Below are positions 1 through 51,413 of a DNA stretch of 51,413 nucleotides, piece after piece. The stretch's first letter is position 1; each line of letters begins with the position of its first letter. Under the pieces are notes generated by a model. The model was not told where the DNA came from. It worked only from the letters and a program-made list of their open reading frames with translations, and ran no database searches. The stretch covers positions 1-51,413 of IMG/VR virus record IMGVR_UViG_2563366798_000003. One strand, given 5' to 3'. The position numbers and the translations under genes were made by a program. Source of the DNA: a virus. Its lineage: Duplodnaviria > Heunggongvirae > Uroviricota > Caudoviricetes.

Positions 1-1143
1 CTATGCTGTTTTGATATCTACGATAATCCAGTCTTTACCACGATCATCATTGTATCGGTCGGTCATTTTTCTGGATTTATGACCTAACAACTTTTGCGTA
101 TCCAGCCCCTGTTCCCGATATAACCGTTCTGACAGAGATCGCTGCTCATGAAATGTGGGCGCAGTTCCTGGCTCCCATTTTATGCCACATTTTTCCCTGG
201 CCTTTTTAAAAGCCGTTGTAAGAGTATTTGCAGAAACCTGGTCTCCTCTGTTTGCTTGAGAGGTAGTGTGACGGTAATGGACCAGATATTTACTAACAAC
301 AGCATCCCTGCACTGAGATATAACTTCACGAAGGGTAATATTCAGAGCATCGCATTTCAGGCTAAGCGGAATAGCAAGTTTTGAACCGGTTTTTTCCTGA
401 GTAATGTGCAACATGTCGTCCCATATATCAGAGAATTTCAAATTGCAGATATCGCCTAAACGTTGTCCAGTGACAAGAGCAAGTAGCATCCCGCATTTTA
501 AATAGGGCTGCCGTCTGCTTACGCTGTCAAATATTGCCTGCCATTCGGACAGTGATAATCTTTGGCGGTTTACTCGATTTCGCGGTTGTTTTGTTGCCTG
601 CGCTGGGTTAAATCCTGGCGGAACATGTCCTGCGTGTTGTGCTTCTTTGAAGACGTCGATCAACACCATTCTCACGACTTGCGCCATCCTGTTATGACCT
701 TCAGCCTTTACAGCATCAATTATTTCGGCAATATCAAGTGCGGTAATATCCTTGAGGTGTTGCATTCCACAATGCTCACGGAAGAGACGAATGGGTTTGC
801 CTTTTTGCCGATAGGAGTTGGGTCTTAGTTCATTATGTTGCAGCCTGTCCTCCTGGATAGAAATATATTTATCAAGCCATTCTGTCACCGTAATGTCTGA
901 GCGCCTGCCTTTCATTCTTTCCAGACGCTCATTGACGCTTAATATTTGTCGGGTACGTTGTTCAGCAATAATGGTATTTGCTTCAGTAGCAACCTGTTTT
1001 GCTTCATTCTCATCAGTTCCTAAACTATGAAAACGACCGGATAGTGGATGTTTGTATTGCCAATATACCTTTCCGGTTCGCTTATCTAATTTGCAATATA
1101 AATTGGGTATAGAGATTTTGTGAGATCGGGGTCTAGCAGCCAT
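1..1143 (-). CDS. int: tyrosine integrase, lambda Int family
   Basis: 380-aa ORF; C-terminal region (TFHEQRSLSERLY...LLGHKSRKMTDRY) resembles the lambda Int catalytic C-terminus; stop codon at positions 1-3; overlaps upstream xis-like ORF by 11 nt. Confidence 0.9.
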   Translation of the reverse strand: MAARPRSHKISIPNLYCKLDKRTGKVYWQYKHPLSGRFHSLGTDENEAKQVATEANTIIAEQRTRQILSVNERLERMKGRRSDITVTEWLDKYISIQEDRLQHNELRPNSYRQKGKPIRLFREHCGMQHLKDITALDIAEIIDAVKAEGHNRMAQVVRMVLIDVFKEAQHAGHVPPGFNPAQATKQPRNRVNRQRLSLSEWQAIFDSVSRRQPYLKCGMLLALVTGQRLGDICNLKFSDIWDDMLHITQEKTGSKLAIPLSLKCDALNITLREVISQCRDAVVSKYLVHYRHTTSQANRGDQVSANTLTTAFKKAREKCGIKWEPGTAPTFHEQRSLSERLYREQGLDTQKLLGHKSRKMTDRYNDDRGKDWIIVDIKTA

Positions 1144-5762: not shown

Positions 5763-6716
5763 TTATTCGAATGGAAGATCTATTTGCCTTTGAGGATTCA
5801 ACTGTTTTTTTACATGCTCAATTTCGAATATGGTTTTTATGGCATCTCCGATCATATATTGAGTTACTTTTAAATCTACAAGTAACATATCACCTTTAGA
5901 AAAATTTAAGGTGTTGTTATCAATATCGCTGATGAATTTCTGGTCTTTTATTTCAGCCAAAAAGCTACTGGCACCATCAGAAAACCGCCACCGGCTTCCT
6001 TCATTGAAGGAAATATTTTTAATTTGAAGGGCTTTCTCTACTGTGTACTCTGAAATTATTGATTCTGCTGGTAGATTGACTTTGAAATAATGTGCTTCTT
6101 GCTTGTTGATCGTCATGAATGTCAAACCATCATCGACAGTAGAGGCAAAGCTGTCAATGCCTTCCTGCTCTAATGGCTTACTTATAACTTCTTGTAATGA
6201 AGAGCGAAGTTTAATATTTTTATAAAGTTCAATAACGTTACTGTCGTAGATCTCGCTTTCGTCATCAACAAAGACTTCGATGTTGCTATCAGGCAAATTG
6301 TGTAATTTTTTTATTTTCCTTGGACCTATCCATTTTATCAGTTGAATTAGGCCTTTGCATATTTTTTCTTTAGAACCAGGACAGAGTCCAATAAAAGCAA
6401 TCAAATTCGCAGCGGCTGTTGCTGAATCGCCGGATAAAAAATCAACAGCCTGTTTGAACCAAGATGTAGATGAGGCAACCAGATCTATTCCAAATGAGCC
6501 AGCTTTAAATGATGCATTGACTTTTACAGAAACAACAGTCTTGTTTCCGTAGAGAGTTTTACCGGCTTCCTCTAATGCATCTGATAGTGATAGAAGGGCA
6601 GGAGCAAGGTCTCGCACGTTCATTTCATGCGTTTCCAGTGCCGGACCGTCGTATACTATCCTGAACTTCATATCATTGGTTTCCGAATTGTTGCCCGCAT
6701 CCATTATGGCATTCAC
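5763..6716 (-). CDS. hypothetical protein (317 aa) in the lysogenic rex slot between cI and pL
   Basis: Long AT-rich ORF on the cI strand, directly downstream of cI and followed by a terminator; no recognisable domain; start ambiguous (ATG at 6716 or 6704). Confidence 0.75.
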   Translation of the reverse strand: MNAIMDAGNNSETNDMKFRIVYDGPALETHEMNVRDLAPALLSLSDALEEAGKTLYGNKTVVSVKVNASFKAGSFGIDLVASSTSWFKQAVDFLSGDSATAAANLIAFIGLCPGSKEKICKGLIQLIKWIGPRKIKKLHNLPDSNIEVFVDDESEIYDSNVIELYKNIKLRSSLQEVISKPLEQEGIDSFASTVDDGLTFMTINKQEAHYFKVNLPAESIISEYTVEKALQIKNISFNEGSRWRFSDGASSFLAEIKDQKFISDIDNNTLNFSKGDMLLVDLKVTQYMIGDAIKTIFEIEHVKKQLNPQRQIDLPFE

Positions 6717-6777: not shown

Positions 6778-7506
6778 CTACCCATGCTTCCTATACGTCT
6801 GCGGCATGCTCCCAATAACCTTACCGAAGATGAACACCCGGTTCATCTCGTCTTTCTCGATCGGGTCCCAAGGTGAGTAGCTCTTGTTATCAGAGATAAC
6901 CAGCAGCTTATCCTTCATCATTTGCAGACGCTTTACATGGGCTGTGTCGTCGTACAGAAACGCATAGATACCATCACCGTCGAAAGATTTAACCGTGATA
7001 TCAACGAACAGCAGATCACCTGGTTCGATCGTTCCTGACATGCTGTCACCACGCACGTTAATGATGCGGATATTTTCCGCCTTCCTGCCATCGAACATGT
7101 GACGAGCATCGTCAAACGAGTACTCAACCGAGCGTAGAACTTCTACAAACTCACGATTGATGACACCCGGCCCGGCACTGACTTCTATATCAAGAACGTC
7201 AATCTTGAAGTATTTGGAATGGTTGACAGCAGGCTTCCCTGATTGTTGACCGTCATTTCTCATCGGGCCTATGCCTGATGAGAGCCACTCAGTTCGAACA
7301 CCCAATGCATTAGCTATTTCAACAATTTTTGTTGAGCCGCGCGCGTTGCCGCTTGTCAGTCTCCAGATTGTGGGTTGAGCTACGCCAGACGCCTTTGCAA
7401 GAGCGCCTTGAGACATTCCAGATTGTTCCATCGCTAGGTTTAAGCGATCAGCAAGAGTTTCTTTTTTCATAAGTTTTAATTTATACGCTCGCGTATTGAT
7501 GGTCAA
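6778..7506 (-). CDS. cI: CI-type repressor (HTH + S24 LexA-like peptidase domain)
   Basis: 242 aa; N-terminal HTH (MSQGALAKASGVAQPTIWRL), C-terminal S24 signature GDSM and putative Ala-Gly cleavage site; divergent from the Cro-like gene. Confidence 0.9.
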   Translation of the reverse strand: MTINTRAYKLKLMKKETLADRLNLAMEQSGMSQGALAKASGVAQPTIWRLTSGNARGSTKIVEIANALGVRTEWLSSGIGPMRNDGQQSGKPAVNHSKYFKIDVLDIEVSAGPGVINREFVEVLRSVEYSFDDARHMFDGRKAENIRIINVRGDSMSGTIEPGDLLFVDITVKSFDGDGIYAFLYDDTAHVKRLQMMKDKLLVISDNKSYSPWDPIEKDEMNRVFIFGKVIGSMPQTYRKHG

Positions 7507-10741: not shown

Positions 10742-12289
10742 CTACTTGTCTTTTTTAATATGTTCAATCTCATCATTAAGACATTTATCTATTTTTTTTA
10801 TTAACACATTAATTTCTTCGGTGTTTTGGAGTTGAGTTGTCTTAGAAACAAAAACTCGAATAAAGAATTTAACATAGTGATAGGGTTGAAGTACATCGTT
10901 ATACTTACATAAATCATTTATTGTATACTTGCCGCCTGTTTCTTTTTTTATTATTTTAGCTTGACTTGTATCGATATCTTTAAAGTTATCTTCAATCTGA
11001 AAATCAAGAACCCATTCATCTCCTTTTAAATTATCCTCAATGATTTTGTTGATTTTCTTAGATATATTTTGTTTATATTCTTTGTATCTGTTGTCGGAAA
11101 TGTTAACATTAGAAAACGTGTGTTTTTTTTCATATATTTTTTTCCAAACATTTCTATCAACAATATCTTGAATTATAGCTTGAGAATTTTTATCTAATGT
11201 GTTTTTAAGAGTGTTTTCTAAAAACGTTTTGTCTGGGTTTTCACGATAAAAGTGTTTGATGGACTCAATGAGAGTGTTTTTAGATTTTAAAGAGACAACA
11301 TCATCAGTTTTTTTTCTAGAACACGCTTTGTTAAGCATCGCAGATAGTGCACGATTGGTCTTATGAAAATAAACTTGACTATAAAGCCCACTTCTTGCAT
11401 TGGCAAATTCTAGTATTGAATCCATACCACTTTCTTTATATGCCAGGTAAACACTATTTTCAACTTTCACAGGAATAAATGACATTAATAATCGTCCATA
11501 ATCATAAATCCCATATTTAACGCCGGAGAAGTAGCTATCTCTAAGTAGGTAGTCCATTCTGTCCGCATCTATAGGTGAAGATGATATGATTGAACATAAT
11601 AAAGGATATACATTTACTCCCTCAATGTTATTTTTAAAATCATATCTTTTATCAACAATTTTTATAATGCTTTCTGGATTAATAGCCGCTATGTTTTCTT
11701 TATAGACATCGTCGTCATTTGATTTATCTTGGGCTTCATTTTTTAATTCTTCAATAATTTCTTTAATAAAAATACATGATACTTGTTCGTGGGTTAACTT
11801 GTCATTATCACTTAAAGATATAATCTTATCGTATTGTTTATTTCCTTCAGTTTTGCATTTTTCTTTGAAATCTTTTACGGATATTGCAAAACTATCGAAT
11901 TGGTGGGCAAGTGGGCCATGCCCAACATCGTGTAACAATGCTGCAATACGTAACTCCTGTATAAGACTTGAAGGCATTTTTTTTATATCTAAATATAGAT
12001 CAATGCCCATATTTTTTCGGTCATAAATTAATGCATTCAAATTTATATTTTTCAAAATCTCATACGATAAATGCATTACACCGACAGAGTGTTCAAAGCG
12101 AGAGTGCATTGCAGAAGGAAATACTTTATATAGAAACGTGTTCTGCCTGATATCTCGTAGTCGTTGGAATAAAGGATGGTCAATTATCTTTTTTTCTAGC
12201 TTAGTTATTCGAATCACTCCATGTATGGGATCTAAAAACTTCCCCAGAAGTAAGTCTTCAAAGTTCTCAAGTTTGTTTTTGTTTGTCAT
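10742..12289 (-). CDS. HD-domain phosphohydrolase, Dgt/SAMHD1-like putative dNTP triphosphohydrolase
   Basis: 515 aa; motifs H-x-x-H (HSRFEHSVGVMH), HD (LLHDVGHGPLAH) and D-x-D-R-x-D-Y-x-x-R-D (DADRMDYLLRDSYFSG); AAGGAAAG SD; strongly AT-rich, opposite strand to flanking phage genes. Confidence 0.85.
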   Translation of the reverse strand: MTNKNKLENFEDLLLGKFLDPIHGVIRITKLEKKIIDHPLFQRLRDIRQNTFLYKVFPSAMHSRFEHSVGVMHLSYEILKNINLNALIYDRKNMGIDLYLDIKKMPSSLIQELRIAALLHDVGHGPLAHQFDSFAISVKDFKEKCKTEGNKQYDKIISLSDNDKLTHEQVSCIFIKEIIEELKNEAQDKSNDDDVYKENIAAINPESIIKIVDKRYDFKNNIEGVNVYPLLCSIISSSPIDADRMDYLLRDSYFSGVKYGIYDYGRLLMSFIPVKVENSVYLAYKESGMDSILEFANARSGLYSQVYFHKTNRALSAMLNKACSRKKTDDVVSLKSKNTLIESIKHFYRENPDKTFLENTLKNTLDKNSQAIIQDIVDRNVWKKIYEKKHTFSNVNISDNRYKEYKQNISKKINKIIEDNLKGDEWVLDFQIEDNFKDIDTSQAKIIKKETGGKYTINDLCKYNDVLQPYHYVKFFIRVFVSKTTQLQNTEEINVLIKKIDKCLNDEIEHIKKDK

Positions 12290-12648: not shown

Positions 12649-14151
12649 TTAAATTGCATCTGCAAACTCTGTGATTTTTCGCTCAAGTATGATTGATGAG
12701 TTGCTGTTGTCGATTTTTTTATTTTCATGATTACGAATAGCCAATGACTCATTAAAGTCTTTTGCGACTGCTGTCTCAATAAATTCAATTTCTGAATCAG
12801 AGTGTTTTTTAACAGCTTCTTTGATCTCATCCAGAGTAACATAGAAAAACTCTTTTCTACGATTTACAAGATTGACTCTCTTTTTATCGAAGACATCATG
12901 TAGTTTTTTTTCTAATGATGGAGCGTCCTCCGAATAAATCATGGCATGCACATCAAAAATAAAAGGAACAGATGCATCACCAAGCTCATTTACACGGTCT
13001 TGTGGATCAAGACGTCGTGTCATGCCTATTTTATAAACATTCTCCCCAAAAGAACCTATGTTCGAAATAATATAAACATGACCTTGTTTGGTTTGTTGTG
13101 CCATGGATAATGCTCTTTGATGCTTTGATTCAGCCTGCGACAAACTCTGTTCTAGTTCGGCAATGCGATTTTCGAGGCGCTGCTTCATGTCACCAGTAAC
13201 TTTTTCCATTTCCTTTCTTGCAGCTTCAATTGCTTTTTTATAACGGCGCTCTTCTGCCTCTGCGTCTTGCATGGCCTTTTCTATTTCTCGTTGTGCACGC
13301 TCCTCCTCTCTCATTTGTGCCCTTATTTCTGCCTGTTCTTCTTTTTCTTTCTGTTTTTGCTCACGATATTCATGGGTAAGCCACAACTCCTCAAGTTTTT
13401 TATTAAGGTATTTAGTATTTATATATATGTGATTTTGCTCGTTTAGTTTATTTATGGCCTCAAATGCCTTTGTGATGCGTTCTTCCATTTTAGTGATATT
13501 TTTCCACGTGCAATTACTAATTGCAGCATCACATTCATTATTAAATGCTCTAGTAGTTAGCCTAATATTTCTGTCTGTCATTTTTTTACCCTCTGCTCGA
13601 GAGCCTTCAACAGTCCATTGGGTTGTGCAATATACTGCACCAGAGTGGGTTTTATCCCGCAGCATTAATTTCTGTTCATCCCTGATGGATTTTATTTTGT
13701 TTTTAAATTGCTCTGAATCTTCAAAATTAAAATGAGGTTCGTAAAATCCTAGTTCGGCTAGTTCAACATCTTCTGAATAAATAGAAATTTGCTTTACTAG
13801 CTTATCATATATTTCTTTCTTCTCTTTATAAGTTCTTCTTAGTTCTTGGATTTGTTTATTGATACCATCCATTTTTTCAATGGTGTTTGTTAGTTCATTA
13901 TTGGCATTTTCTTTTACTTTTTGGGACTCTTCTTTTATAATGGAGCATTCTTGCTCTGTTTTCTCAATAAGCTTCTTACATTCCTCTTCCACATTAAAAT
14001 AATCTGCAAAGCGAGATTTGTATTCTTCATTTTTTTGATTGCTATCACTTAATTCTAATTGTATTTTTTTGATGCGTTTGATTGCAGCTATATATAGAAC
14101 AAGAACAACCAATAAAAATATGATTGCAAGTAATAGTGGAGTTTGAGTCAT
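12649..14151 (-). CDS. membrane-anchored coiled-coil protein with C-terminal T5orf172/GIY-YIG-like domain
   Basis: 500 aa; N-terminal hydrophobic helix (LLLAIIFLLVVLVLYIAAI), long charged coiled-coil segments, C-terminal GHVYIISN...VYKIGMT...VPFIFDVHAMIY motif; AAGGA SD. Confidence 0.8.
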   Translation of the reverse strand: MTQTPLLLAIIFLLVVLVLYIAAIKRIKKIQLELSDSNQKNEEYKSRFADYFNVEEECKKLIEKTEQECSIIKEESQKVKENANNELTNTIEKMDGINKQIQELRRTYKEKKEIYDKLVKQISIYSEDVELAELGFYEPHFNFEDSEQFKNKIKSIRDEQKLMLRDKTHSGAVYCTTQWTVEGSRAEGKKMTDRNIRLTTRAFNNECDAAISNCTWKNITKMEERITKAFEAINKLNEQNHIYINTKYLNKKLEELWLTHEYREQKQKEKEEQAEIRAQMREEERAQREIEKAMQDAEAEERRYKKAIEAARKEMEKVTGDMKQRLENRIAELEQSLSQAESKHQRALSMAQQTKQGHVYIISNIGSFGENVYKIGMTRRLDPQDRVNELGDASVPFIFDVHAMIYSEDAPSLEKKLHDVFDKKRVNLVNRRKEFFYVTLDEIKEAVKKHSDSEIEFIETAVAKDFNESLAIRNHENKKIDNSNSSIILERKITEFADAI

Positions 14152-15982: not shown

Positions 15983-16067
15983 AGTCAGAGATAACAATCA
16001 ACTAATACTGTTTTGTTGATTTTTGCTTGTAATTGGCGTTCTGGTCTGATTTTTGTGGAGTAAGTTG

Positions 16068-16445
16068 ATGCGTGATATTCAGATGGTTCTTGAGCGTTGG
16101 GGAGCGTGGGCGGCTAATAATCATGAAGATGTGACCTGGTCGTCCATTGCCGCCGGTTTTAAGGGATTAATTCCTTCAAAAGTAAAATCTCGCCCACAAT
16201 GTTGTGACGATGACGCGATGATCATTTGCGGGTGCATGGCCCGTCTGAAAAAGAACAACAGCGATTTGCATGATTTATTGGTGGACTATTATGTCGGCGG
16301 CATGACTTTTATGGCGCTTGCACGTAAGCATGGGCGATCTGATTGTTGGGTTGGCAGGATGCTCCAGAAAGCTGAGGGCGTAGTGGAGGGTATGCTGATG
16401 GTGTTGGATCTCCGATTGGAGATGGATGCTGATTGTTCGAAATAA
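16068..16445 (+). CDS. Q: late-gene antiterminator Q (DLP12 QuuD-like)
   Basis: 125 aa from [33 protein letters not shown]..., cysteine cluster [12 protein letters not shown]; position upstream of lysis genes. Confidence 0.8.
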
Positions 16446-16600: not shown

Positions 16601-17125
16601 TTATTGTTTAACCCATAATAATTCATTGACATTGAATCCCAACTTTTGAGCGGTTCGCACATAGTCTGCTTTTACTTTATCTGGAATAGTTGAGGTCCTT
16701 GCCAGAATCCATAGGTATTCTCTGTTCGGACCACTGACAAGAGCATACTTATACTCATCATCCAGTTTGATTACATTATAGCCACCATAGAAGGGGCCAA
16801 AAAACGAAACCTTCAACGCTGCAGTTTTAGTATCTCCAGTAAAGTATGCTTTACCTTCGCTCTCGCTCCATTTATTTTTCGTTGGATCGTATCCACGGTT
16901 AAGTACACGAATCCCTCCGTCGTTCCGTTTTCCATAAGTAGCGCTGACCTGTTCCAGACCACGTTCGAACCGGTTCTCGAGGCGAGCTATTTCATACCAT
17001 TTTCCGAGGTAGCGGTTGGCGTCAAAATTTGTAATCGGCTGCACACCTTTAGGTGGTGTCGGGGTCTTACATGCTATAAGAGTGAAAGAGAGCGCAATGC
17101 CAGTCAACACAGGCCATAACTTCAT
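16601..17125 (-). CDS. lipocalin-family outer-membrane lipoprotein (Blc-like)
   Basis: 174 aa with lipoprotein signal (LSFTLIAC) and lipocalin motif (GKWYEIARLENRFE); moron position between Q and lysis genes. Confidence 0.8.
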   Translation of the reverse strand: MKLWPVLTGIALSFTLIACKTPTPPKGVQPITNFDANRYLGKWYEIARLENRFERGLEQVSATYGKRNDGGIRVLNRGYDPTKNKWSESEGKAYFTGDTKTAALKVSFFGPFYGGYNVIKLDDEYKYALVSGPNREYLWILARTSTIPDKVKADYVRTAQKLGFNVNELLWVKQ

Positions 17126-17317
17126 AATAAATCCTGTACTTTTGATAGTTGAGAGTAAGTATGAAAGATAGATGATTACGACCGATCACTTAAAGAACTT
17201 TCATACTATATTAGGAATAGTCCATAACAGAAAAATTGTCAGTGATGACGCCAGAAAGGCAATTTATTCCGTGCACTACACAGTTTATGTGTTAATGAAT
17301 TAGTCAAGGGGGAGGAT

Positions 17318-18277
17318 ATGATAAAAAAACCTGTGATTGGAATCAGCGGTTGTTTGGCCGGTTCTGCTGTTCGTTTTGATGGTGGTCACAAAAGAGCTGA
17401 CTTTTTAATGGACAAATTAGTGGAATGGGTAACATTCAGACCAGTATGTCCGGAAATGGCTATAGGGCTGCCAGTTCCGCGTCCTGCTCTACGTCTTGTG
17501 CGCTCGACGCAAGGAAATATACGGATGTGTTTCAGCCACGACCAGAATGAGGATGTGACAGAGAGAATGACAGAGTTTAGTCGTTCTTATATGGACAAAT
17601 TAAAGGATGTATCGGGGTTTGTGGTTTGTGCTAAATCTCCCAGCTGTGGCATGGAGCGCGTGCGTGTCTATGATGAAAATGGTAATCGAGGTCGTAAAGA
17701 TGGAGTGGGACTATTTACGAGCACTTTGATGGAAAAGTTTTCCTGGCTACCGGTTGAAGAGGATGGGCGATTACATGATCCAGTGCTTCGTGAGAATTTT
17801 GTTGAAAGAGTTTTTGCTTTGCATGAGCTCAATCACCTTTACAAGGAGAAATTATCAAGAAGAGAGTTATTGGCTTTTCATAGTCGTTATAAGCTTCAGT
17901 TGTTGGCGCATAGTCAGACAGGCTATAAAGATATGGGACCATTTGTGGCTGCAATACACGAGTGGGCGGATCTTGAATCATACTTTGAGGTGTATCGTGA
18001 TAAGCTGATGGCGATTCTCAGAAAACCTGCATCACGTAAAAATCACACGAATGTGCTGATGCATATACAGGGGTATTTTAGTAACTACTTAAGTACACGC
18101 CAGCGTAAAGAGTTGAGCGAGGTTATACTTAACTATCGTTCTGGCACATTACCTCTTCTTGCGCCGTTGACTCTGCTGAAGCATTATCTGGGTGAGTATC
18201 CTAATGATTACTTGCTTACACAGAATTACTTCGATCCCTATCCGGACGAACTGGCTCTAAGACTGATGGTAAATTAA
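17318..18277 (+). CDS. YbgA-like protein (DUF523 + DUF1722 architecture)
   Basis: 319 aa; N-terminus GISGCLAGSAVRFDGGHKR typical of the DUF523 family; GGAGG SD. Confidence 0.65.
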   Translation: MIKKPVIGISGCLAGSAVRFDGGHKRADFLMDKLVEWVTFRPVCPEMAIGLPVPRPALRLVRSTQGNIRMCFSHDQNEDVTERMTEFSRSYMDKLKDVSGFVVCAKSPSCGMERVRVYDENGNRGRKDGVGLFTSTLMEKFSWLPVEEDGRLHDPVLRENFVERVFALHELNHLYKEKLSRRELLAFHSRYKLQLLAHSQTGYKDMGPFVAAIHEWADLESYFEVYRDKLMAILRKPASRKNHTNVLMHIQGYFSNYLSTRQRKELSEVILNYRSGTLPLLAPLTLLKHYLGEYPNDYLLTQNYFDPYPDELALRLMVN

Positions 18278-18619
18278 TTGTATGCGATATCATCCAAAAG
18301 GATGAGTTCCTGCATACAGGATATTTACAATCGTAAAAACTACACTATGATACCCAGAGTGTCAGTTTGTATAAAAACTCTGTTTACGCTGAAGAAACCA
18401 TTGAGATGCAACTTAAATTTGGTAAACATGCCAGTCAAAATATATGATATTATGATTCCACGCAGCTATATATAATATAACAGATTGGTTTAATAATTTG
18501 TCTTTGTGAGTTAAATACATAATTTTATACTTGTGATGCAATGAGATTTTCCTTATTGTTGAACTGGCGAATATTGATTTTCCACCTATACTTACCTGGT
18601 GTAACCCCAATGATATCAG

Positions 18620-19360
18620 GTGGATAATATGCCATACATATGTTCTATCATTTTGGTGTTGAACTCGTTTGATGTCCGAATTGGTAAAGAAGATATTTTG
18701 TTTAAAAAAGGAAGTGCTGTTCTCATTGATTACAATTTAAAAGATTTTTTTTCATCAAATATAGATCATGTAATGATCGTAGATGTTGAAGAGAAAACAG
18801 TTAATGATTTCTTTAAAAGCAACACACTCTCACCTTTTTCTGTAAGAAGGTTTTATCCGGCATACTTGATGGTGGAATGTGAAGATTTTTCATTGTTAAA
18901 GAACTTGATTGCATGCTTGAATTGTGATGGCAGAACTGTGGATTTTGTTAGAAATCAAATATCACTTGCATGTCTTGCTATCTTATCTTCAGAGAAAATA
19001 GTGCAAAGTTTTTTATTTGGATGTCTTAATAGTTTAGGAAGTAAAGTTAAGGCTATTATTCACACGGATATATCTGCAACATGGAGACTTTGTGATATAT
19101 CTTCAAGACTGTATCTGAGTGAAAGTCTGTTAAAAAGAAAATTAAAGCACGAAGGCTTATCATTTAGTAAATTAATTCTTGAAGAGCGAATGGTGATGGC
19201 GGAAAGGTTATTAAGCTACAATTTATATTCTGTTGGAAAAGTTGCTGAGATATGCGGTTATGAAAACACGTCATATTTTGTAAGTGTTTTCAGAAGATAT
19301 TTTGGTGTTCCTCCCCATCAATATTCATCAAGATTTTTTTTAGAAAAAGACATGATGTAA
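18620..19360 (+). CDS. AraC-family transcriptional regulator
   Basis: 246 aa, AT-rich; C-terminal AraC HTH (VGKVAEICGYENTSYFVSVFRRYFGVPPHQY). Confidence 0.8.
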   Translation: MDNMPYICSIILVLNSFDVRIGKEDILFKKGSAVLIDYNLKDFFSSNIDHVMIVDVEEKTVNDFFKSNTLSPFSVRRFYPAYLMVECEDFSLLKNLIACLNCDGRTVDFVRNQISLACLAILSSEKIVQSFLFGCLNSLGSKVKAIIHTDISATWRLCDISSRLYLSESLLKRKLKHEGLSFSKLILEERMVMAERLLSYNLYSVGKVAEICGYENTSYFVSVFRRYFGVPPHQYSSRFFLEKDMM

Positions 19361-42110: not shown

Positions 42111-42179
42111 AATTGTTATAACCCATATAAGGGCACCAGAAATGGTGCCTTTTTTATTGCAGAAAAGCGAGAGGTAATT

Positions 42180-42779
42180 ATGCGTAAACTTTATGCCGCC
42201 ATTTTTTCCGCAGCCATCTGTCTGGCCGTATCCGGTGCGCCTGCATGGGCATCTGAACATCAGTCCACGCTGAGCGCGGGGTATCTTCATGCCTCGACGA
42301 ACGTTCCCGGCAGCGATGATCTTAACGGGATTAACGTGAAATACCGTTATGAGTTTACGGACACACTGGGGCTGGTGACGTCATTCAGCTATGCAGGAGA
42401 CAAGAATCGCCAGCTTACCCGTTACAGCGATACCCGCTGGCATGAAGATTCCGTGCGTAACCGCTGGTTCAGCGTGATGGCGGGGCCGTCTGTGCGCGTG
42501 AATGAATGGTTCAGTGCTTATGCGATGGCGGGTGTGGCTTACAGCCGTGTTTCGACGTTCTCCGGGGATTATCTCCGCGTAACTGACAACAAGGGGAAAA
42601 CGCACGATGTGCTGACCGGAAGTGATGACGGTCGCCACAGCGACACGTCTCTGGCGTGGGGAGCTGGCGTGCAGTTTAACCCGACCGAATCCGTGGCCAT
42701 TGATATTGCTTATGAAGGCTCCGGCAGTGGCGACTGGCGTACTGACGGTTTCATCGTGGGTGTCGGTTATAAATTCTGA
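42180..42779 (+). CDS. lom: Ail/Lom-family outer membrane protein
   Basis: 199 aa with signal peptide and C-terminal [24 protein letters not shown] identical to lambda Lom C-terminus. Confidence 0.9.
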
Positions 42780-42843
42780 TTAGCCAGGTAACACAGTGTT
42801 ATTACAGCCCGCCGGTTCAGGCGGGCTTTTTTGTGGAGTGGAT

Positions 42844-45201
42844 ATGGCAGCAGTAAAAATCTCAGGTGTGCTGAAAGATGGTGCGGGAAAACCAATACAG
42901 AACTGCACTATTCAACTGAAGGCAAAGCGTAACAGCACCACGGTACTGGTGAACACGGTGGCCTCTGAAAATCCGGATGAAGCCGGGCGTTACAGCATGG
43001 ATGTTGAGTATGGCCAGTACAGCGTCACCCTGCTGGTTGAAGGTTTTCCGCCTTCACATGCCGGGATCATTACCGTCTATGAAGGTTCCAGACCCGGTAC
43101 GCTGAATGATTTTCTCGGTGCCATGACGGAAGATGACGTCATGCCGGAGGCATTGCGTCGTTTTGAGGCAATGGTGGAAGAAGCGGCACGCAACGCCGAA
43201 GCCGCCTCTCAGAGCGCAGCGGCGGCAAAGAAATCCGAAACGGCTGCGGCATCATCGAAGAACGCGGCGAAAACCTCAGAAACGAATGCAGCTAACAGCG
43301 CACAGGCGGCAGCGGCCTCGCAGACTGCATCGGCAAACTCCGCGACAGCAGCCAAAAAATCAGAAACCAACGCGAAAAATAGCGAGACAGCCGCAAAGAC
43401 GAGCGAAACCAACGCAAAGTCCAGCCAGACGGCAGCGAAAACCAGCGAAACGAATGCCAAAGCCAGTGAAACTGCGGCGAAAAATAGCCAGAATGCAGCA
43501 GCCGAAAGCGAGAGTGCGGCAGCTGGTTCTGCGACTTCAGCAGCTGGATCAGCAACTGCTGCGGCTAACAGCCAGAAAGCAGCGAAGACGAGCGAAACTA
43601 ACGCAAAGTCCAGCCAGACGGCAGCGAAGACCAGCGAAACGAATGCCAAAGCCAGCGAAACTGCGGCGAAAAGCAGTCAGGATGCAGCAGCTGAAAGCGA
43701 GAGTGCCGCAGCTGGTTCTGCAACAGCGGCAGCTAATAGCCAAAAAGCTGCAAAAACCAGTGAAACTAACGCAAAGACGAGTGAAACAAAAGCAGCAGCT
43801 AGCGAGACAGAAGCAACGTCAGCCGCAACAAGAGCAGAGAATGCAGCCCGGATTGCAGAAGATGCCGCTGATCCTGCTTCTGTCCCTCCGCTTCCTGATA
43901 TCTGGCTACCCTTGAATGATTCTCTGGAAGCGATAACAGGGTATGCCCCGGGCTATAAAACAATAACCATCGGCAGTGATGAAATAACAATGCCTGTTAA
44001 TGGCATATGCCAATTTAGCCGGGCTTCATCTGCAACGTATATTGATAAGTCCGGGCATATTACCGTGGCAGGGAATAACGTTCCTCGTTTTGAAAAATAT
44101 GGTTTGCTGATAGAGAATCAGCGAACAAACATGTTCGTAAATAGTTTTAATCCTGATGCCTGGAATAAAAGCGGTGGTATATCTGTAACATCATCAACAG
44201 ATGAATTTGAGTTTAAATATGGACGTTTCACGGTAGGAAGCGATATAGCAGGAACGACAACAGGGAGAAATATATGCACAGTTGCTGGTAACAAAGGCAT
44301 AGATGTGACTGGCGATGATCAGTACAGTAAAGGTCCGTATGTTACCGCGTCGTTCAGGGTAAGAAGTGATCTCAATGTTCGCGCACGTATCCGTTTTGAA
44401 CGGTATAACTCGGAAGGATACACCTTCCTTTGCGACGCCTATTTGTCATTACAGACCCATGAACTACAAATTACTGGTGGCAATGCCCAGCTATTAACAG
44501 CAAACTTTGAAATCGATCCTGGTAGTGGATGGATATACTTTCAGGCAACACTGAAATGTCTGCCAGAATGGGGAATGGTTGGTACGCAGCTGCAAATTGC
44601 AGCCGACAGAGCTGTGGGGTCTTTTGCAACAGGTGACTGGATAGAAGTAACCACCCCGCAATTCGAGTATGGTGCTTGTGCAACTTCCTTCATCATAACG
44701 ACAACAGAGCCAGCGACTCGTGCATCAGATTTATGTAAATTTCCGCTGATGAAAAATATGTATACCATGCCTTTTACGTTCATGGTGGAAGTCCATAAAA
44801 ACTGGTTTATTTCTCATAATGCTGCACCGCGTGTCATTGATTCAGAAAATCACCAGTCCGGAGGCCCATTTATTATGGGGTTTGGTTCTTCTGGAACTAT
44901 TAGTCAGGACGGTTATTCGTATTGCGATATAGGCGGGGCTAACCGACGTGTATATGAATCATGCGGAGTAAGGGATCTCGTTATGGGATTCAGGGTTAAG
45001 GCTGACGGCATGACATGCTCATTTGCAAATAAGCATATAAGCACTGAAACAAAAACAGTATGGAAATATATTCGTGAAGCAGCCGTGATTCGTATCGGGG
45101 GGCAAACGACGACAGGATTACGACACCTTAATGGTCATATAAAAAACCTCCGTTTCTGGAACAGAGCATTGTCAGATACGCAGCTTAAGGAATACGTATA
45201 A
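42844..45201 (+). CDS. stf: side tail fibre protein Stf (lambda-like N-terminus, repeat-rich middle, divergent C-terminus)
   Basis: N-terminus MAAVKISGVLKDGAGKPIQNCTIQLKAKRNSTTVLVNTVASENPDEAGRYSMDVEYGQYSV matches lambda Stf; GGAGTGG SD before ATG 42844. Confidence 0.85.
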   Translation: MAAVKISGVLKDGAGKPIQNCTIQLKAKRNSTTVLVNTVASENPDEAGRYSMDVEYGQYSVTLLVEGFPPSHAGIITVYEGSRPGTLNDFLGAMTEDDVMPEALRRFEAMVEEAARNAEAASQSAAAAKKSETAAASSKNAAKTSETNAANSAQAAAASQTASANSATAAKKSETNAKNSETAAKTSETNAKSSQTAAKTSETNAKASETAAKNSQNAAAESESAAAGSATSAAGSATAAANSQKAAKTSETNAKSSQTAAKTSETNAKASETAAKSSQDAAAESESAAAGSATAAANSQKAAKTSETNAKTSETKAAASETEATSAATRAENAARIAEDAADPASVPPLPDIWLPLNDSLEAITGYAPGYKTITIGSDEITMPVNGICQFSRASSATYIDKSGHITVAGNNVPRFEKYGLLIENQRTNMFVNSFNPDAWNKSGGISVTSSTDEFEFKYGRFTVGSDIAGTTTGRNICTVAGNKGIDVTGDDQYSKGPYVTASFRVRSDLNVRARIRFERYNSEGYTFLCDAYLSLQTHELQITGGNAQLLTANFEIDPGSGWIYFQATLKCLPEWGMVGTQLQIAADRAVGSFATGDWIEVTTPQFEYGACATSFIITTTEPATRASDLCKFPLMKNMYTMPFTFMVEVHKNWFISHNAAPRVIDSENHQSGGPFIMGFGSSGTISQDGYSYCDIGGANRRVYESCGVRDLVMGFRVKADGMTCSFANKHISTETKTVWKYIREAAVIRIGGQTTTGLRHLNGHIKNLRFWNRALSDTQLKEYV

Positions 45202-45470
45202 TGCGGGATATAACATTACGATTCGATAACAGAGAACAGTTTAACGCAATTGTATATGACAGTGGCCTGTTCAGTCTTGAAGAAGAAAACGGGGTTCTTG
45301 TTGATGTTATTGGCTGCATTATCGATTACGAGGAGCCAGAAAACGAAAGATGTACAGGCATTGATCGCGGTGGTTTTTTCGTAAACATGAGGATTGTTGA
45401 TAGCAGTAAAAACATATCTTCTTTAATGCCTTTCATTACGACAGATCAGCATGTAAGGACATGGGCTTAA
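45201..45470 (+). CDS. hypothetical protein (89 aa) in tail-fibre module
   Basis: ORF overlapping stf stop (TAATG); AT-rich; no family recognised. Confidence 0.45.
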   Translation: MRDITLRFDNREQFNAIVYDSGLFSLEEENGVLVDVIGCIIDYEEPENERCTGIDRGGFFVNMRIVDSSKNISSLMPFITTDQHVRTWA

Positions 45471-45482
45471 TGGAGTAAGACA

Positions 45483-46523
45483 ATGGTTACAAAAACAGTA
45501 ATTCCTGATGACATCAAAACGCTAAAATCCGATGTTAGTAAACTAAAAACTGATCAAGGAAGCTATGCAACAAAATCATATGTAGACAATAAAACAACAT
45601 GGAATAGTTATTGCAATGTAATCTATGATCAAAAGGCATTGCCGACCACTGGAACTATATTTAGCGGTAAGATTCACTTGTCAAATAAGGCAGGAGAAAC
45701 CGAAAACGCTTATAGCGAGATGTACACCAGAAAAAATATTGACGGCACTAAAGATACAATGACAAGGATTGTCACACACAACGGAACAAAAGGTATCTTC
45801 TGGGATTTTAGCGATCTTTACGGTGGGACATTGATTTTCCCAGGAAATGAAGGTTACTTAAAAATGGGTAAGTGCCTCATGTCTTATGGGAATCGTGTTG
45901 ATAACGCCATTATTAAATTTGATTACACAGACACATTACAAATCAAATACGCTAATCATGGGTCAACCATGACATTAAACACACAGGGAACCGCTCACGC
46001 TGGCGTAACAACTAGACTATGGGGTAGTTCTAGCCGTCCGGTTGTTTATGAAGTTGGCGTAGATGAGGCTCTGTATATGTTCTACGCACAGAAAACTACC
46101 AGCAATACCTACGAATTAACGGTTAACGGCGCGTGCAATGCAAGTGCATTTAATCAAGGCTCTGACCGGGATCTGAAAGACAATATTCAGGTGATCGATA
46201 ATGCAACCGACCGCATTCGTAAAATGAACGGCTATACATACACGCTTAAAGAAAACGGTATGCCTTACGCTGGTGTTATTGCACAAGAAACCCTGGAAGC
46301 CATCCCCGAAGCCGTAGGGGCTATGATGAAATATCCAGACGGCGGGAGTGGATTAGATGGAGAAGAAGGTGAACGGTATTACACTGTAGATTATTCTGGT
46401 GTTACTGGCTTGCTTGTTCAGGTAGCCAGAGAGTCAGACGACAGGATAACAGCACTGGAAGAAGAAAACGCAGAATTAAGACAAAGATTATCTGCAATTG
46501 AGGCGGTGCTTGCGTCTAAATAA
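45483..46523 (+). CDS. tail fibre/tailspike-like protein with C-terminal intramolecular chaperone (peptidase S74-type) domain
   Basis: 346 aa; C-terminal region (SDRDLKDNIQVID...GYTYTLKENGMPYAGVIAQE...YYTVDYSGVTGLLVQ...coiled coil) resembles autoproteolytic chaperone domains of phage fibres. Confidence 0.65.
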   Translation: MVTKTVIPDDIKTLKSDVSKLKTDQGSYATKSYVDNKTTWNSYCNVIYDQKALPTTGTIFSGKIHLSNKAGETENAYSEMYTRKNIDGTKDTMTRIVTHNGTKGIFWDFSDLYGGTLIFPGNEGYLKMGKCLMSYGNRVDNAIIKFDYTDTLQIKYANHGSTMTLNTQGTAHAGVTTRLWGSSSRPVVYEVGVDEALYMFYAQKTTSNTYELTVNGACNASAFNQGSDRDLKDNIQVIDNATDRIRKMNGYTYTLKENGMPYAGVIAQETLEAIPEAVGAMMKYPDGGSGLDGEEGERYYTVDYSGVTGLLVQVARESDDRITALEEENAELRQRLSAIEAVLASK

Positions 46524-46550
46524 TATTAAGGGGCCGAGCGCCCCATTTTA

Positions 46551-46859
46551 TTGGGTAGGATGAAAATGGATATAACACCTTTCCTTCATGCACTTTGTGC
46601 TGTGGCTGCGCAGCTACTGATTGGTCTTTTTACCGGGAACTGGGCTTACGGAGCGATAGCCGGTTGTACGTTCTTCATTGCGCGTGAACACACCCAGGCA
46701 GAATATCGCTGGATCGAAATGTTCGGGCATGGCAAGCGAATGAATATGCCGTGGTGGGGCGGTTTTGATACACGTGCATGGGATGTGGCAAGCCTGATGG
46801 ATTTTGCTGTGCCGGTGGTGGCGTGTCTGCTGGTCTGGCTGTTGGTTAATCGTGGGTGA
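46551..46859 (+). CDS. small membrane protein (about 100 aa, two predicted TM helices)
   Basis: Hydrophobic segments LHALCAVAAQLLIGLF and FAVPVVACLLVWLLV; last gene before the AT-rich spacer. Confidence 0.45.
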   Translation: MGRMKMDITPFLHALCAVAAQLLIGLFTGNWAYGAIAGCTFFIAREHTQAEYRWIEMFGHGKRMNMPWWGGFDTRAWDVASLMDFAVPVVACLLVWLLVNRG

Positions 46860-47535
46860 AAAAAGGTGAGCTGTATATGCAACGGAGGAAGAAACCCCGT
46901 TGCTGGAAGCCTGGAAAAAGTATCGGATGCTGCTAAACCGTGTGGACACTTCCGTAGCACCAGATATCGAGTGGCTTATTCAACCATAATAAACAGTATG
47001 TATATCATAGGTTATTAATTGTGAGTTTTTTCGGTGTGTTATTTGTTTGTTTGATGTTATGCTTTTGCGCCCCAAAAGGTTGTTTAGATGTATTTTATCA
47101 ATTGATTTTCAATATCGTTTAATAAAGAAAAATTAAGCAAGCTGGATGTTGGTTTTTTGTTAATTGAATGGTTCTAATAATGTTTTTTTACTGTTGTTGA
47201 ATGTGACTTGATAAGAAATGCAAGTAAAAATGATACTCTTTTTATTTTAAATTCAAACGGTTGACATATATATAGCAAGAGGTTTCAGGTGCGTTGTAGT
47301 GAGTTTATGTTAATAAAAAGCATATTAATCGTTGAAAAAATGTAACTTTGAAATACGTTAGAATAAAAAACAATATACATATAATAATTTAATCTTAAAT
47401 GAAATTTATTAAAATTTGCAAACTATAATTTTGTGTATAAAAATATAAATGCACATCATCCTGATTATGATTGTGTATTTAATTGGTTGTTATTTGACTA
47501 CTATCAACTTGTTTTAATTTTATGATAGGTGCAAG

Positions 47536-48285
47536 ATGGATTATGTTTGCTCCGTAGTTTTCATCTGTCAATCATTTGATTTAATTATAAACAGGAGAGT
47601 TATCTCGTTCAAAAAAAATTCATTGTTTATTGTAAGCGACAAAATTAGAAGAGAGTTACCAGTATGCCCCTCTAAACTAAGAATTGTTGATATAGATAAG
47701 AAAACATGTTTATCCTTTTTTATCGACGTGAATAATGAGTTGCCTGGCAAATTTACTCTTGATAAGAATGGCTATATTGCTGAAGAGGAACCTCCATTAT
47801 CGCTTGTTTTTTCTCTGTTTGAAGGGATTAAAATAGCAGACTCACACTCCCTTTGGTTAAAAGAAAGACTATGTATATCCTTACTTGCCATGTTCAAAAA
47901 ACGCGAAAGTGTAAATTCATTTATACTAACAAATATAAATACATTTACCTGTAAAATTACTGGAATAATCAGTTTTAATATTGAGCGGCAATGGCATTTA
48001 AAAGATATTGCGGAATTGATTTATACGAGTGAAAGTTTAATAAAAAAAAGATTAAGGGATGAAGAAACGTCATTTACTGAAATATTGAGAGATACTAGGA
48101 TGAGGTATGCAAAAAAACTCATAACTTCAAACTCTTATTCTATCAATGTCGTAGCCCAGAAATGTGGCTATAACAGTACTTCATATTTCATATGTGCATT
48201 TAAAGATTATTATGGTGTCACGCCATCTCATTATTTTGAGAAAATAATCGGCGTCACAGATGGAATAAACAAAACAATTGACTGA
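47536..48285 (+). CDS. appY: AraC-family regulator, AppY-like
   Basis: 249 aa, strongly AT-rich, C-terminal AraC HTH; sequence and position next to ompT match my recollection of E. coli AppY. Confidence 0.75.
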
Positions 48286-48534
48286 TAATATTTATTACAA
48301 GTTGTCTACATGTTAATTATAATATTATACAGCGTGTTTTTTGATGTGATATTCTGGAACCATTAATTTGTAATTGGGTTGCTGTCGCCTATTTTATACA
48401 CACTATAATTGATGGTTTTCTATGTGATTTAGTTAATAACCTTCTGGGTTTATTTTAAGGGTTAATTGTTACATTGAAATGGCTAGTTATTCCCCGGGGC
48501 GATTTTCACCTCGGGGAAATTTTAGTTGGCGTTC

Positions 48535-49488
48535 TTAAAATGTGTACTTAAGACCAGCAGTAGTGATGAAGTTATAGTTTTCTATGCCTGCTCCATTTTT
48601 GCTGTAGTCTGAAGTGTTATTATTGTGATCATAAAGTGAAGTATTACCTTTTTTATTCGTAACCCGATTCCATGCGCCTTCAACATAAACTTTTGCGTTA
48701 GGTGTGACGTAATAACCTGCATTGACTGCAACAGAATAGTAATTTTGGTCTTTGACCTTACTGCGATAAGTGATTCTTTTTCCCGGGTCATAGTGTTCAT
48801 CGTTATCAGATGATTCCACCCAGCCGCTGTATTTAAATGTGCCACCTAGCTCAAAATCTTCATAACGATAACTTCCAGTCAAGCCAATGTAGGGCATTTT
48901 AAAACGTTGTTTGTAGCCGATTGCTCTTTCTCCATTCGGGAAGGAGCCGATATCATCTCTGAATCCCTCCTCAGAACTGTAGATATAGGAACCACCTCTG
49001 GCTGTAAAGCTATAACGGCTTTCCTGATATCCGGCCATGAGTCCCAGGCGGTAATTGGGTTCGTTGAGGAGCCAGCCTTTGATATTCAGATCAAATTCGT
49101 TGGCATAATTGAGTTGTGTATCAGGATGTCTACTTTCATCCGTCCAGGTTCCGGGGTTACTGGAATCCATCCAGTCCTGATCGACCATATTGCCACCTCG
49201 GCTGCCGAGTGTTGTCCAGCCAGCAGCCCCGATAGATATCTGAGGCATCAAATCCCAATTAATTGCACCTTTAATAATTGCAGCGTTATTGAATTTCCAG
49301 TCAAGTTGACTGACTTTTCGGCTTCCTTCTTCGGCTAGATAAACACGCTCTTTTGTTTTTCCGCTCAGAGTTCCAAGACTAATGTCCGCATTTATGTTGT
49401 CAGGAGTAAACGATAAAGTCTCGGTAGAAGCAAAAGAGTTGATCGCAATAGGGGTTGTCAGGACTATTCCCAGAAGTTTCGCCCGCAT
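48535..49488 (-). CDS. ompT: outer membrane protease OmpT (omptin)
   Basis: 317 aa matching E. coli OmpT (MRAKLLGIVLTTPIAI...TAGLKYTF). Confidence 0.95.
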   Translation of the reverse strand: MRAKLLGIVLTTPIAINSFASTETLSFTPDNINADISLGTLSGKTKERVYLAEEGSRKVSQLDWKFNNAAIIKGAINWDLMPQISIGAAGWTTLGSRGGNMVDQDWMDSSNPGTWTDESRHPDTQLNYANEFDLNIKGWLLNEPNYRLGLMAGYQESRYSFTARGGSYIYSSEEGFRDDIGSFPNGERAIGYKQRFKMPYIGLTGSYRYEDFELGGTFKYSGWVESSDNDEHYDPGKRITYRSKVKDQNYYSVAVNAGYYVTPNAKVYVEGAWNRVTNKKGNTSLYDHNNNTSDYSKNGAGIENYNFITTAGLKYTF

Positions 49489-50038
49489 AAAAGTTCTCCA
49501 TTCAATCGTTTTAATGATTGAATATGTATTTTTTATATCTAACTTAATGAGTCAATTACATATTGCTCCACTGTTTATATTTTGTTTAGTATTGAATGAT
49601 TATCACAATGCGCTATCTGTTTTTGGTTTAATTATCTGTTATTGTTTCATATTGCGGTTTTACTGTGTGGTTTTTTTATGATTTTGTGGTGCTTTTATCT
49701 ATTTAAGTGCCATGCCTTTAGAGGCATATAAGCGAAAATAGCATGAGGTTTATCCTCAATTACTATGTTTTTTAGTACAAAAAAGAGGGACAAAACTGAG
49801 ACACATAAGGCCTCACAAAGGTCTGCAAGGCTTCACATGTATTGAGATGTTAATAAAATGTAGGCTTGTAATTTTGATATAAATGGTAGATAAAACCTTT
49901 CCCCAAAATAAAAACGAACGTCAATAAAATCAAACGGTTGAATAAAGTTGATTTTGGCTAATAAAAAGACAATAAAATAATTTTTATCATTAAATATCAA
50001 TGAATTGAACTTAATGTTTTTATATACTGCTGCGCCAT

Positions 50039-50190
50039 ATGGGCTGGACTGAAGCCGCAGACCTGATTGTTAAAGGTATGGAAGGCGCAATCAACGCCAA
50101 GACCGTAACCTATGACTTCGAACGTCTGATGGAAGGCGCTAAGCTGCTGAAATGTTCAGAGTTTGGTGACGCGATCATCAAAAACATGTA
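50039..50190 (+). pseudogene. icd: 3' fragment of isocitrate dehydrogenase gene (icd C-terminal duplicate, icdC-like)
   Basis: Encodes ...[49 protein letters not shown]-stop, the Icd C-terminus, with no upstream coding continuation. Confidence 0.8.
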
Positions 50191-50214
50191 ATCACTACAT
50201 GTGTTAAATATTGT

Positions 50215-50244
50215 AACGGGCGTATAACACGCCCGTTGTTTTAT
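50215..50244 (+). terminator. rho-independent terminator downstream of icd fragment
   Basis: AACGGGCGT / ACGCCCGTT stem with ATAAC loop followed by GTTTTAT. Confidence 0.6.
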
Positions 50245-50260
50245 GTAAGTTTGCTAACGG

Positions 50261-50293
50261 TTATCAAAATTTTATCAAAATAAGTTATCAAAA
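50261..50293 (+). repeat. three direct TTATCAAAA repeats
   Basis: TTATCAAAA at 50261, 50272 and 50285; the second matches IHF-like consensus WATCAANNNNTTR. Confidence 0.5.
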
Positions 50294-50465
50294 CCTCTTA
50301 GTTGTTTGGGGTCGGTTGGTCAGTCAGATGACAGTTCTACTGCCAGGTTCCTATTAGACATTCCTCTATTTGGTGGACGCTCGTTAATATTTAGATCCGC
50401 TATGTGTCAGGTGCGGGCATTGTTATAAATGCCAATTGATATAACGTCAGCTCGTTTATCTCATC

Positions 50466-50876
50466 TTACAGAACCTCAACAACTTCAAACTCTTCCATAA
50501 TCAACTCCATATCTTCAGAAAAATGACCTTCCTGGGTGAAAAATCGTTGATGCTCTCTCTGCCAATATTCAAGGCTCAAATCGCCTTCACCTTCCTTGCG
50601 AGCTAACTCGGCAGTAACATCACAAAAACACACCAGTTGCATCGACACCAGCCTGGTCACGCATACCGGTACATCCTGGCCGTCAAGGATGATGTTATAG
50701 CTCCCAATCCTTGGGGCAAATTCTTCCTTCTGATAAGAGGCATAAGAGCCACAGGAGGCCGTTTTAATCCCTTTTTCTATAAGTGCTGCAAGCTCGTTAG
50801 CCAGTTCAGGGCTGTCGCCCATTTGCCAGGCATTCGCGTCCGGATATTTCATCTTTAGTTCATCAACCTTACCCAT
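50466..50876 (-). CDS. hypothetical protein (136 aa from internal ATG; longest ORF reaches 51026), possibly ASCH/PUA-like
   Basis: ORF 50466..51026 in track; family assignment is a guess from size and a G-x-K-T motif. Confidence 0.4.
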   Translation of the reverse strand: MGKVDELKMKYPDANAWQMGDSPELANELAALIEKGIKTASCGSYASYQKEEFAPRIGSYNIILDGQDVPVCVTRLVSMQLVCFCDVTAELARKEGEGDLSLEYWQREHQRFFTQEGHFSEDMELIMEEFEVVEVL

Positions 50877-51150
50877 TACACGTCCTTTCTGATTGTAAAT
50901 AATAGAGAAATAGCTGAGCATTAATTGTTCGAATATTAACAGTGATGCTTTCTTGCTAATATCATAGTTCGTTTTTCGCTCAAAGCGGGCTGTTTGGTTC
51001 TTTTTCATGTGGGGTGAGAAATTCAAGGAGGCGTTGAGACGTTTAAATTTTCACAACGCTACTTTGCGCCATTCTTTACCTCAATCATCATGATAACAAT
51101 CGGTTTGACGAAAGTGATCGCGCCTACGCGGATATTATCGTGAGTATGCT

Positions 51151-51413
51151 TCATCGCCATTGTTCCCCAAATACAAAACCAATTTCAGCCAATGTCTCGT
51201 CCATTTTTTCGATGAACTCCGGCAGCATCTCGTCAAAACTCGGCATGTACTTCTCATGTCAGGCTACTTATTTCCTGAACGGGGTTTTGCTATCACGTTG
51301 TGAATTTCAGAAGCGGTAATGACGCCGAGCCGTAATTTGTGGCACGCATCATCTCCCTGTTTGACAGCCCTCACGTCGATCCCGGTACGCAGCAGGATAA
51401 TGTCCGGTGCCAT
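51151..51413 (-). pseudogene. exo: second, internally deleted copy of exo (prophage remnant; continues beyond window)
   Basis: 51107-51255 aligns with 3196-3346 and 51256-51413 with 3765-3920 of the intact exo locus; about 420 bp missing at a TTCAT microhomology. Confidence 0.75.

Follow-up and report, generated by a model that had tools for sequence, protein, structure and literature searches.

The genes appY, for a stress regulator, and ompT, for a protease that is both a determinant of antimicrobial-peptide resistance and a nuisance in protein expression, lie near the right-hand end of the window, by which we mean the whole 51,413-nt stretch of viral DNA analysed here, and their position raises the question of whether they are cargo of a prophage or part of the chromosome at its border. 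We conclude that the pair is very probably a moron cassette in the b region, from the tail fibres to attP, of a lambda-like temperate phage integrated in icd by a phage-21-type integrase. The cassette lies inside the att boundaries, and it is about 99% the same DNA as the right end of DLP12 in Escherichia coli K-12 and the b region of the isolated phages Kati and PhiR68_2.

Gene identity and layout

An earlier note on this DNA had described an AppY-like AraC regulator and an OmpT omptin, and both open reading frames are intact and lie where it had placed them (Table 1). Judged by their sequences, the predicted products are AppY and OmpT. The C-terminal helix-turn-helix region of the former matches Pfam HTH_18 over residues 159-235 (56 bits, 3.7e-15) and also HTH_AraC, and 248 of its 249 residues agree with K-12 AppY, the single change (G177E) falling inside the HTH domain; the comparison with AppY of phage Kati gave the same count and the same change. 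OmpT matches the omptin family (PF01278) at full length (residues 28-317, model positions 1-283 of 283, 431 bits, 2e-129) and is identical to K-12 OmpT at 315 of 317 residues, the changes being G56S and S17N, the latter in the signal peptide and the one substitution in an otherwise retained 20-residue leader. Residues D83, D85, D210 and H212 are all present, and these we take, from knowledge of the OmpT structure and in mature numbering, to be the catalytic pairs Asp83/Asp85 and Asp210/His212.

Table 1. Features of the window that bear on the placement of appY and ompT (positions are those of the window)
Feature	Position	Strand	Description
Phage-21/icd-type tyrosine integrase gene	1..1143	-	380 aa; Pfam Arm-DNA-bind_1 and Phage_integrase
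lom	42180..42779		Pfam match
tfa remnant, tfaX-like	46879..46990	+	last 36 codons; the block shared with K-12 DLP12 starts here
appY upstream region	46991..47535	+	545 bp, 24.8% GC; whole, within the 98.9%-identical DLP12-type block
appY	47536..48285	+	249-aa ORF; predicted AraC/XylS-family transcriptional activator
ompT	48535..49488	-	317-aa ORF; predicted omptin outer-membrane protease; convergent with appY
ompT upstream/promoter region	49489..49786	-	298 bp, 27.9% GC; layout identical to K-12, Kati and 2G7b (alignment)
Segment common to argU- and icd-type att modules	49787..49846	-	about 55-60 bp; right-hand joint of the cassette
Phage-21-type attP P arm	49787..50027	+	now the phage side of attR; contains the TTTCCCCAAAA motif
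attR core/crossover zone	50028..50055	+	28 bp identical to icd at the 23AR0806 attL
icd 3' fragment	50028..50245	+	ORF 50039..50191; terminator hairpin 50213-50239
Second tandem element, start	50246..51413	-	e14-type P' arm, ASCH-domain gene, exo/bet-like sequence
ASCH-domain gene	50466..51026	-	Pfam match

The open reading frames and the GC content also confirmed that the pair lies between the tail-fibre genes and an icd fragment, with AT-rich spacers around it. Upstream of the cassette, the gene for lambda J is followed by lom, then by genes for a side tail fibre and, after a small ORF, for a second tail fibre that includes an S74 chaperone domain. Next come another small ORF and the tfa remnant, whose homologue carries the annotation "partial tail fiber assembly protein" both in strain 582 and in K-12. 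The gap between appY and ompT measures 249 bp at 32% GC, and the GC content of the cassette is 34.6% as against 54.8% in the late region. The complete K-12 upstream regions of both genes are retained. A promoter consensus scan returned 14 sites against 14.7 expected from shuffles, which is no excess, and for this reason promoter assignments were taken from K-12 homology. Terminator-like sites showed a modest excess, and among them are the terminator of icd and the hairpin in the segment common to the two kinds of att module. Rfam searches of 46800-51413 gave sub-threshold matches only, namely IS009 at 54 bits (gathering threshold 117) and STnc150 at 25.6 bits (gathering threshold 60).

Prophage boundaries

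Since the window begins at the int stop codon, it stops just short of attL and of the body of icd, and the left boundary was taken from E. coli 23AR0806, a strain with an identical integrase end. The leftmost 3 kb of the window are 100% identical to 23AR0806, in which icd ends 113 bp before int. The core was located by anchoring three sites on their shared sequence, the attL of 23AR0806, the attR of the window and the attP of phage 21. The first two are identical precisely from 50028 to 50055, and the crossover is bounded only to this 28-bp identity. Over 461 bp, positions 49787-50245 match the phage 21 att region (M61865.1) at 93%, unbroken through P arm, core and icd', and the TTTCCCCAAAA motif in the P arm resembles repeats beside the phage 21 int gene.

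The icd core occurs once in the window with up to 3 mismatches allowed (0 expected), and no tRNA-type att was found anywhere in the window. If an att site separated appY from the tail fibres, both genes would be outside the element; such a site was looked for, and neither an icd core nor a tRNA att copy is present between 42796 and 50027, the sole icd core being the one just described. The crossover lies 540 bp beyond the ompT start codon, and appY and ompT are therefore inside the element, whose core-to-core length is about 50.3 kb with the left end taken from 23AR0806. The att mapping, with the P arm and the only core to the right of ompT, thus upholds the proposal that the pair is carried inside an icd-type lambdoid prophage.

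The same note had taken the icd fragment as the junction. This held in that the attR core is there, but the fragment is a phage-21-like variant (…MEGAKLL…IIKNM) and not the native end of K-12 icdC or strain 582, as seen in an alignment of K-12 icdC, strain 582, phage 21 and the e14 attL, and it abuts a second element instead of chromosomal backbone. Starting at 50246, the window has about 80% identity with the stretch that immediately follows icd in ECONIH5 and in e14 of K-12, and the e14-type P' arm there has three TTATCAAAA repeats (50262-50296). An e14-type arm and phage-like genes after the icd fragment mean that a second icd-type element lies in tandem, one that has neither int nor xis at this end. 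The same tandem layout is found in an IMG/VR contig that matches 46565-51413 at 98.9%, and among 5,426 complete E. coli genomes there is none in which 80% or more of 46900-51413 is covered.

Completeness of the prophage

PhiR11_1, which forms plaques, covers 96% of the late region (24001-47000) at 96% identity, and Perceval, ev243, 2G7b and 434 cover 83-86% of it; the early region is mosaic, with 47-57% covered. The integrase is full length, as are the open reading frames from terminase through J and the tail fibres, there are Q and a repressor of the S24 type, and nothing suggests decay. From this gene content and its size the prophage is plausibly intact. The packaging limit of lambda is about 105% of 48.5 kb, which puts 50.3 kb within range and near the top, and related isolated phages reach 50.1-50.5 kb. 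The tandem icd-type element on the right could interfere with clean excision. The same prophage carries PD-Lambda-1 and a PDC-S42 candidate among its defence genes. For a genome scan, the useful outcome is the corrected boundaries, the two tandem icd-type elements and the defence genes elsewhere in the prophage.

Comparison with DLP12 of K-12

Positions 46879-49846 (2,968 bp) are 98.9% identical to the right end of K-12 DLP12, a length and identity that exclude chance as the source of the pattern. The K-12 blastn match begins at 46879, and the shared block comprises the tfaX remnant, appY, ompT and 358 bp upstream of ompT. In K-12 the pair had been said to sit beside DLP12, a description that needs correction, as the genes are inside that prophage, before its argU-derived attR. 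In MG1655 the 45 bp at 586057-586101 (attR), 424 bp beyond the ompT start, exactly repeat the 3' end of argU, and the DLP12 of RefSeq (564755-586056) includes both genes, with the argU copy immediately after it and envY next. This copy agrees with the published description of the DLP12 attR (PMC6379469), and appY has already been treated in the literature as prophage-encoded cargo (PMC10057817).

DLP12 thus resembles the window in gene order, orientation and position between tfa remnant and attR, but its integrase and att are of the argU type and it is defective, a remnant of 21 kb, whereas in the window int and att are of the phage-21/icd type and the lambda-like gene set is full. The two sequences diverge at 49846, inside the shared hairpin segment. 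Beyond that segment, a six-way alignment showed that K-12, Kati and 2G7b continue into sequence ending in the 3' half of tRNA-Arg argU.

Isolated phages carrying the cassette

Matches to ompT were found in 13 of 50,697 phage records, two of which hold the whole cassette, Kati (PP925833, 98.9%) and PhiR68_2 (PV340576, 98.7%). The other eleven records represent nine phages with ompT alone at about 97% identity, among them 2G7b, ev243, Turner, PhiR26_1, PhiR29_1/2, PhiR30_1 and PhiR49_1. The order in Kati is tfa remnant, appY, ompT, tRNA-like attP and integrase, and in Turner and 2G7b it is hydrolase, ompT, attP and integrase, an alpha/beta hydrolase taking the place of appY in the ompT-only phages. 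Kati, PhiR68_2 and the ompT-only phages share with the window the b-region position by attP and late genes that are 95.6-96% identical, and in the window as in DLP12, Kati and PhiR68_2 ompT abuts the att arm. Unlike the window, Kati, Turner and 2G7b have a 387-aa DLP12-type integrase, and Kati and Turner a tRNA-like attP. The icd-type module was not seen in any ompT-bearing phage record, the region having been inspected in Kati, Turner and 2G7b.

Close relatives are thus already known to package ompT, and appY with it, in infectious particles. PhiR68.2 is among the temperate relatives of lambda that served as a panel for plaque assays (PMC13190303, which cites Brenes and Laub 2025), and Mathieu et al. 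(2020) reported an outer-membrane protease labelled SopA as "found twice" among cultivated Lambda phages from infant E. coli isolates (PMC6969025). We infer that the two SopA phages are 2G7b and ev243, names that are absent from the main text of that paper. Phage-borne ompT is accordingly not a new proposal, and ompT and appY are known cargo of lambdoid prophages.

As to dispensability, the plaque-forming phages PhiR11_1, 434, 4A7 and 1W share late or int regions with the window at 96% and are not among the ompT-matching records. In this the cassette is like the lambda morons lom and bor and the b-region accessory genes, which are outer-membrane or host-fitness genes of deviant composition, dispensable for lytic growth and carried between the late genes and att. 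It differs from them in having two genes, long AT-rich regulatory regions and, as one of its products, a global regulator of host genes.

Pairing with an icd-type integration module

The only unusual point is that the cassette is paired with an icd-type int/att module, and ordinary modular recombination is the simplest explanation of this. Phages 21, 4A7, 1W, 3W and Lambda_4C10 resemble the window in integrase and attP arm (92-96%) and in a phage-borne icd 3' end, but their b regions are without appY and ompT. Prophage NC-SV of NC101 is another lambda relative described at icd (PMC12803456).

The pairing is rare but recurrent, occurring in about 5 of the 5,426 complete E. coli genomes (strains 582, 7CC, Z1323HEC0016, Z1323HEC0300 and FHI_NMBU_03), and the same icd layout is present in two IMG/VR contigs. 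Strain 582 matches 38900-50244 at 99.1%, continues into iraM, and has its sole ompT copy at icd. In Z1323HEC0016, the one examined among it, Z1323HEC0300 and FHI_NMBU_03, ompT is truncated. Across the complete genomes ompT is present in 3,095 (57%), mostly as a single copy, and a study of OmpT in uropathogenic E. coli gives the nfrA-ybcH locus alone as its context and does not mention icd (PMC6854850). A cassette that can be combined with different integration modules helps to explain why no more than 57% of the complete genomes have ompT. Otherwise the window matters little beyond correct annotation: it confirms ompT and appY as lambdoid-phage cargo, and the detail that it adds to known biology is the different integration module and the tandem neighbour.

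Both edges of the cassette are joints between phage sequences, the left one within the tfa remnant. On the right, K-12 homology ends at 49846, and homology to phage 21 starts at 49787 and to 4A7 at 49780. Folded on the int-sense strand, this shared segment forms a hairpin (49797-49841) with a U-rich run after it (-19.1 kcal/mol, z -1.9), and the terminator-like scan also gave a match here. The hairpin occupies the position of lambda tI/sib. It was considered as a homologue of lambda sib/tI and rejected, as there is no significant sequence similarity and the match is one of position and of hairpin and U-run alone.

Origin of the layout and alternative explanations

The cassette would have come to its icd-type int/att module when lambdoid phages recombined through short stretches of homology, which lie in the tfa remnant on the left and in the hairpin segment of about 55 bp on the right. 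A different origin would be gene conversion from a DLP12 on the same chromosome into a resident and possibly grounded icd prophage, in which case the layout would reflect intrachromosomal recombination and not mobility of ompT. The 98.9% identity of the cassette to DLP12 fits such an event, the tfa fragment and the 55-bp shared segment are the substrates that it would use, the tandem second element suggests a recombination-active locus, and the truncated ompT in one icd prophage indicates that decay occurs. We nevertheless consider conversion unlikely: the single ompT of strain 582 is at icd, leaving no DLP12 donor copy in that genome, the same joint recurs in several unrelated isolates and in IMG/VR contigs, and the structural genes are full length and collinear with those of infectious phages. 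Even if conversion had taken place, ompT would have landed in a potentially mobile genome.

The other two alternatives are less probable still. The AT-rich composition of appY and ompT, sharply unlike that of the phage late region, and the truncated tfa before appY, which could be read as a prophage end, might suggest that the genes are chromosomal and that the true attR is to the left of appY, just after the tail fibres. The att mapping has already refuted this, given the lack of any icd core or tRNA att copy from 42796 to 50027 and the phage-21 P arm that follows ompT and runs unbroken into the core, and free phages hold the same genes between tfa and attP, so that the chance of a chromosomal location is vanishingly small. 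It is likewise extremely improbable that the cassette is a transposable unit, inserted beside the att arm by an IS or by another form of transposition. Insertions do occur here, as in one IMG/VR relative an insertion of about 1.3 kb, including a 301-aa ORF, separates the tfa remnant from the upstream region of appY, and IS1 and IS5 are inserted in this region in some E. coli genomes. But positions 46860-50027 hold no transposase ORF, no terminal inverted or direct repeats bracket the cassette (short AT-rich chance matches were the only ones found), and its two edges are homologous phage sequence and not target duplications.

Proposed function

As a b-region cassette of an icd-type lambdoid phage, appY and ompT would be expected to act in the lysogen, where each gene would be transcribed from its own AT-rich upstream region, independently of phage repression, as extrapolated from K-12. 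By analogy with the K-12 orthologues, OmpT would act at the cell surface, cutting cationic antimicrobial peptides and other proteins at dibasic sites, and AppY would switch on hya, appCBA and the genes for acid resistance and increase the level of RpoS. AppY is described as an activator of anaerobic, phosphate-starvation and acid-resistance genes whose own expression is controlled by H-NS, ArcA and RpoS (PMC10057817). Upon excision the 50.3-kb genome would take the cassette out with it and into the phage particle; the phage would gain a fitter host and the genes would gain horizontal mobility.

A further idea, which we regard as distinctly unlikely, is that ompT benefits the phage as well as the host, with an anti-phage or exclusion role and expression by read-through from pL, and that the shared hairpin doubles as a recombination linker between att modules. 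In every phage examined, ompT directly adjoins attP on the side opposite int and points in the same direction as int, so antiterminated pL transcripts could read through the hairpin into ompT after excision or infection. This is also the position that the ea genes of lambda occupy beyond tI/sib. In a genome-wide screen, overexpression of ompT raised fitness against phages T3 and T7 (PMC7553319).

Variation in the appY–ompT cassette

While the AppY protein of this prophage (gene at 47536..48285) has Glu at codon 177, within its HTH_18 domain, K-12, strain 582 (an E. coli with the same cassette at icd) and phage Kati all have Gly at this codon. In one relative of this prophage, the tfa remnant is split from the region upstream of appY by an insertion of about 1.3 kb (positions 4919..6248 of L014, from IMGVR_UViG_2541047874_000003), which holds a 301-aa ORF on its minus strand and may be an insertion sequence. 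For the icd prophage of E. coli Z1323HEC0016, which carries this cassette too, we noted that appY is intact while ompT is cut down to a C-terminal fragment (L007 5752..5994, DNA of that strain), indicating decay of the cassette in some lineages.

Attachment arms and a tandem second element

About 190–230 bp from the core lies a hairpin followed by a U-rich run, which is kept across both argU-type (K-12 DLP12, Kati and 2G7b) and icd-type (phage 21 and this prophage) att arms. Its position matches that of lambda tI/sib; no sequence similarity to lambda was found for it. The hairpin may act in retroregulation or as a terminator, and may serve as the linker for the exchange of att modules. Beyond the right junction, a second icd-type element follows in tandem (50246..51413), comprising in order an e14-like P′ arm that contains three TTATCAAAA repeats, an ASCH-domain gene standing where int and xis of this element would be expected, and exo/bet-like sequence. 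At 50245/50246, phage-21-like icd′ meets the e14-like arm, making a hybrid of the displaced icd fragment.

Additional cargo and candidate defence genes

Further cargo was identified between Q and the lysis genes (16601..19360), consisting of three genes, the last of which encodes an AraC-family protein, making two AraC-type regulators in this prophage when AppY is counted. A PD-Lambda-1 defence gene, with the replication genes on one side and the nin region on the other, encodes DUF4041 and T5orf172/MUG113 nuclease domains, those treated for the membrane nuclease SNIPE (PMC13190303), and is adjoined by an ORF for an HD-domain protein. A PDC-S42 candidate, in which a Pfam search found no domain, lies next to the S24-type repressor gene on its downstream side, the position held in lambda by rexAB.

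Positions of the hairpin and of genes outside the cassette
Feature	Position	Strand	Size	Match
PDC-S42 candidate defence ORF	5763..6716	-	317 aa	family match, 3.4e-86
S24-type repressor gene	6778..7506	-		
HD-domain ORF	10742..12289	-	515 aa	dGTPase-like, marginal only
PD-Lambda-1 defence gene	12649..14151	-		PADLOC, 5e-198
Q	16053..16445			
Blc-type lipocalin	16601..17125	-		
2-thiouracil desulfurase/DUF1722 protein	17318..18277	+		
AraC-family regulator	18620..19360	+	246 aa	
Hairpin with U-rich run	49797..49841	-		
ASCH-domain gene, second element	50466..51026	-
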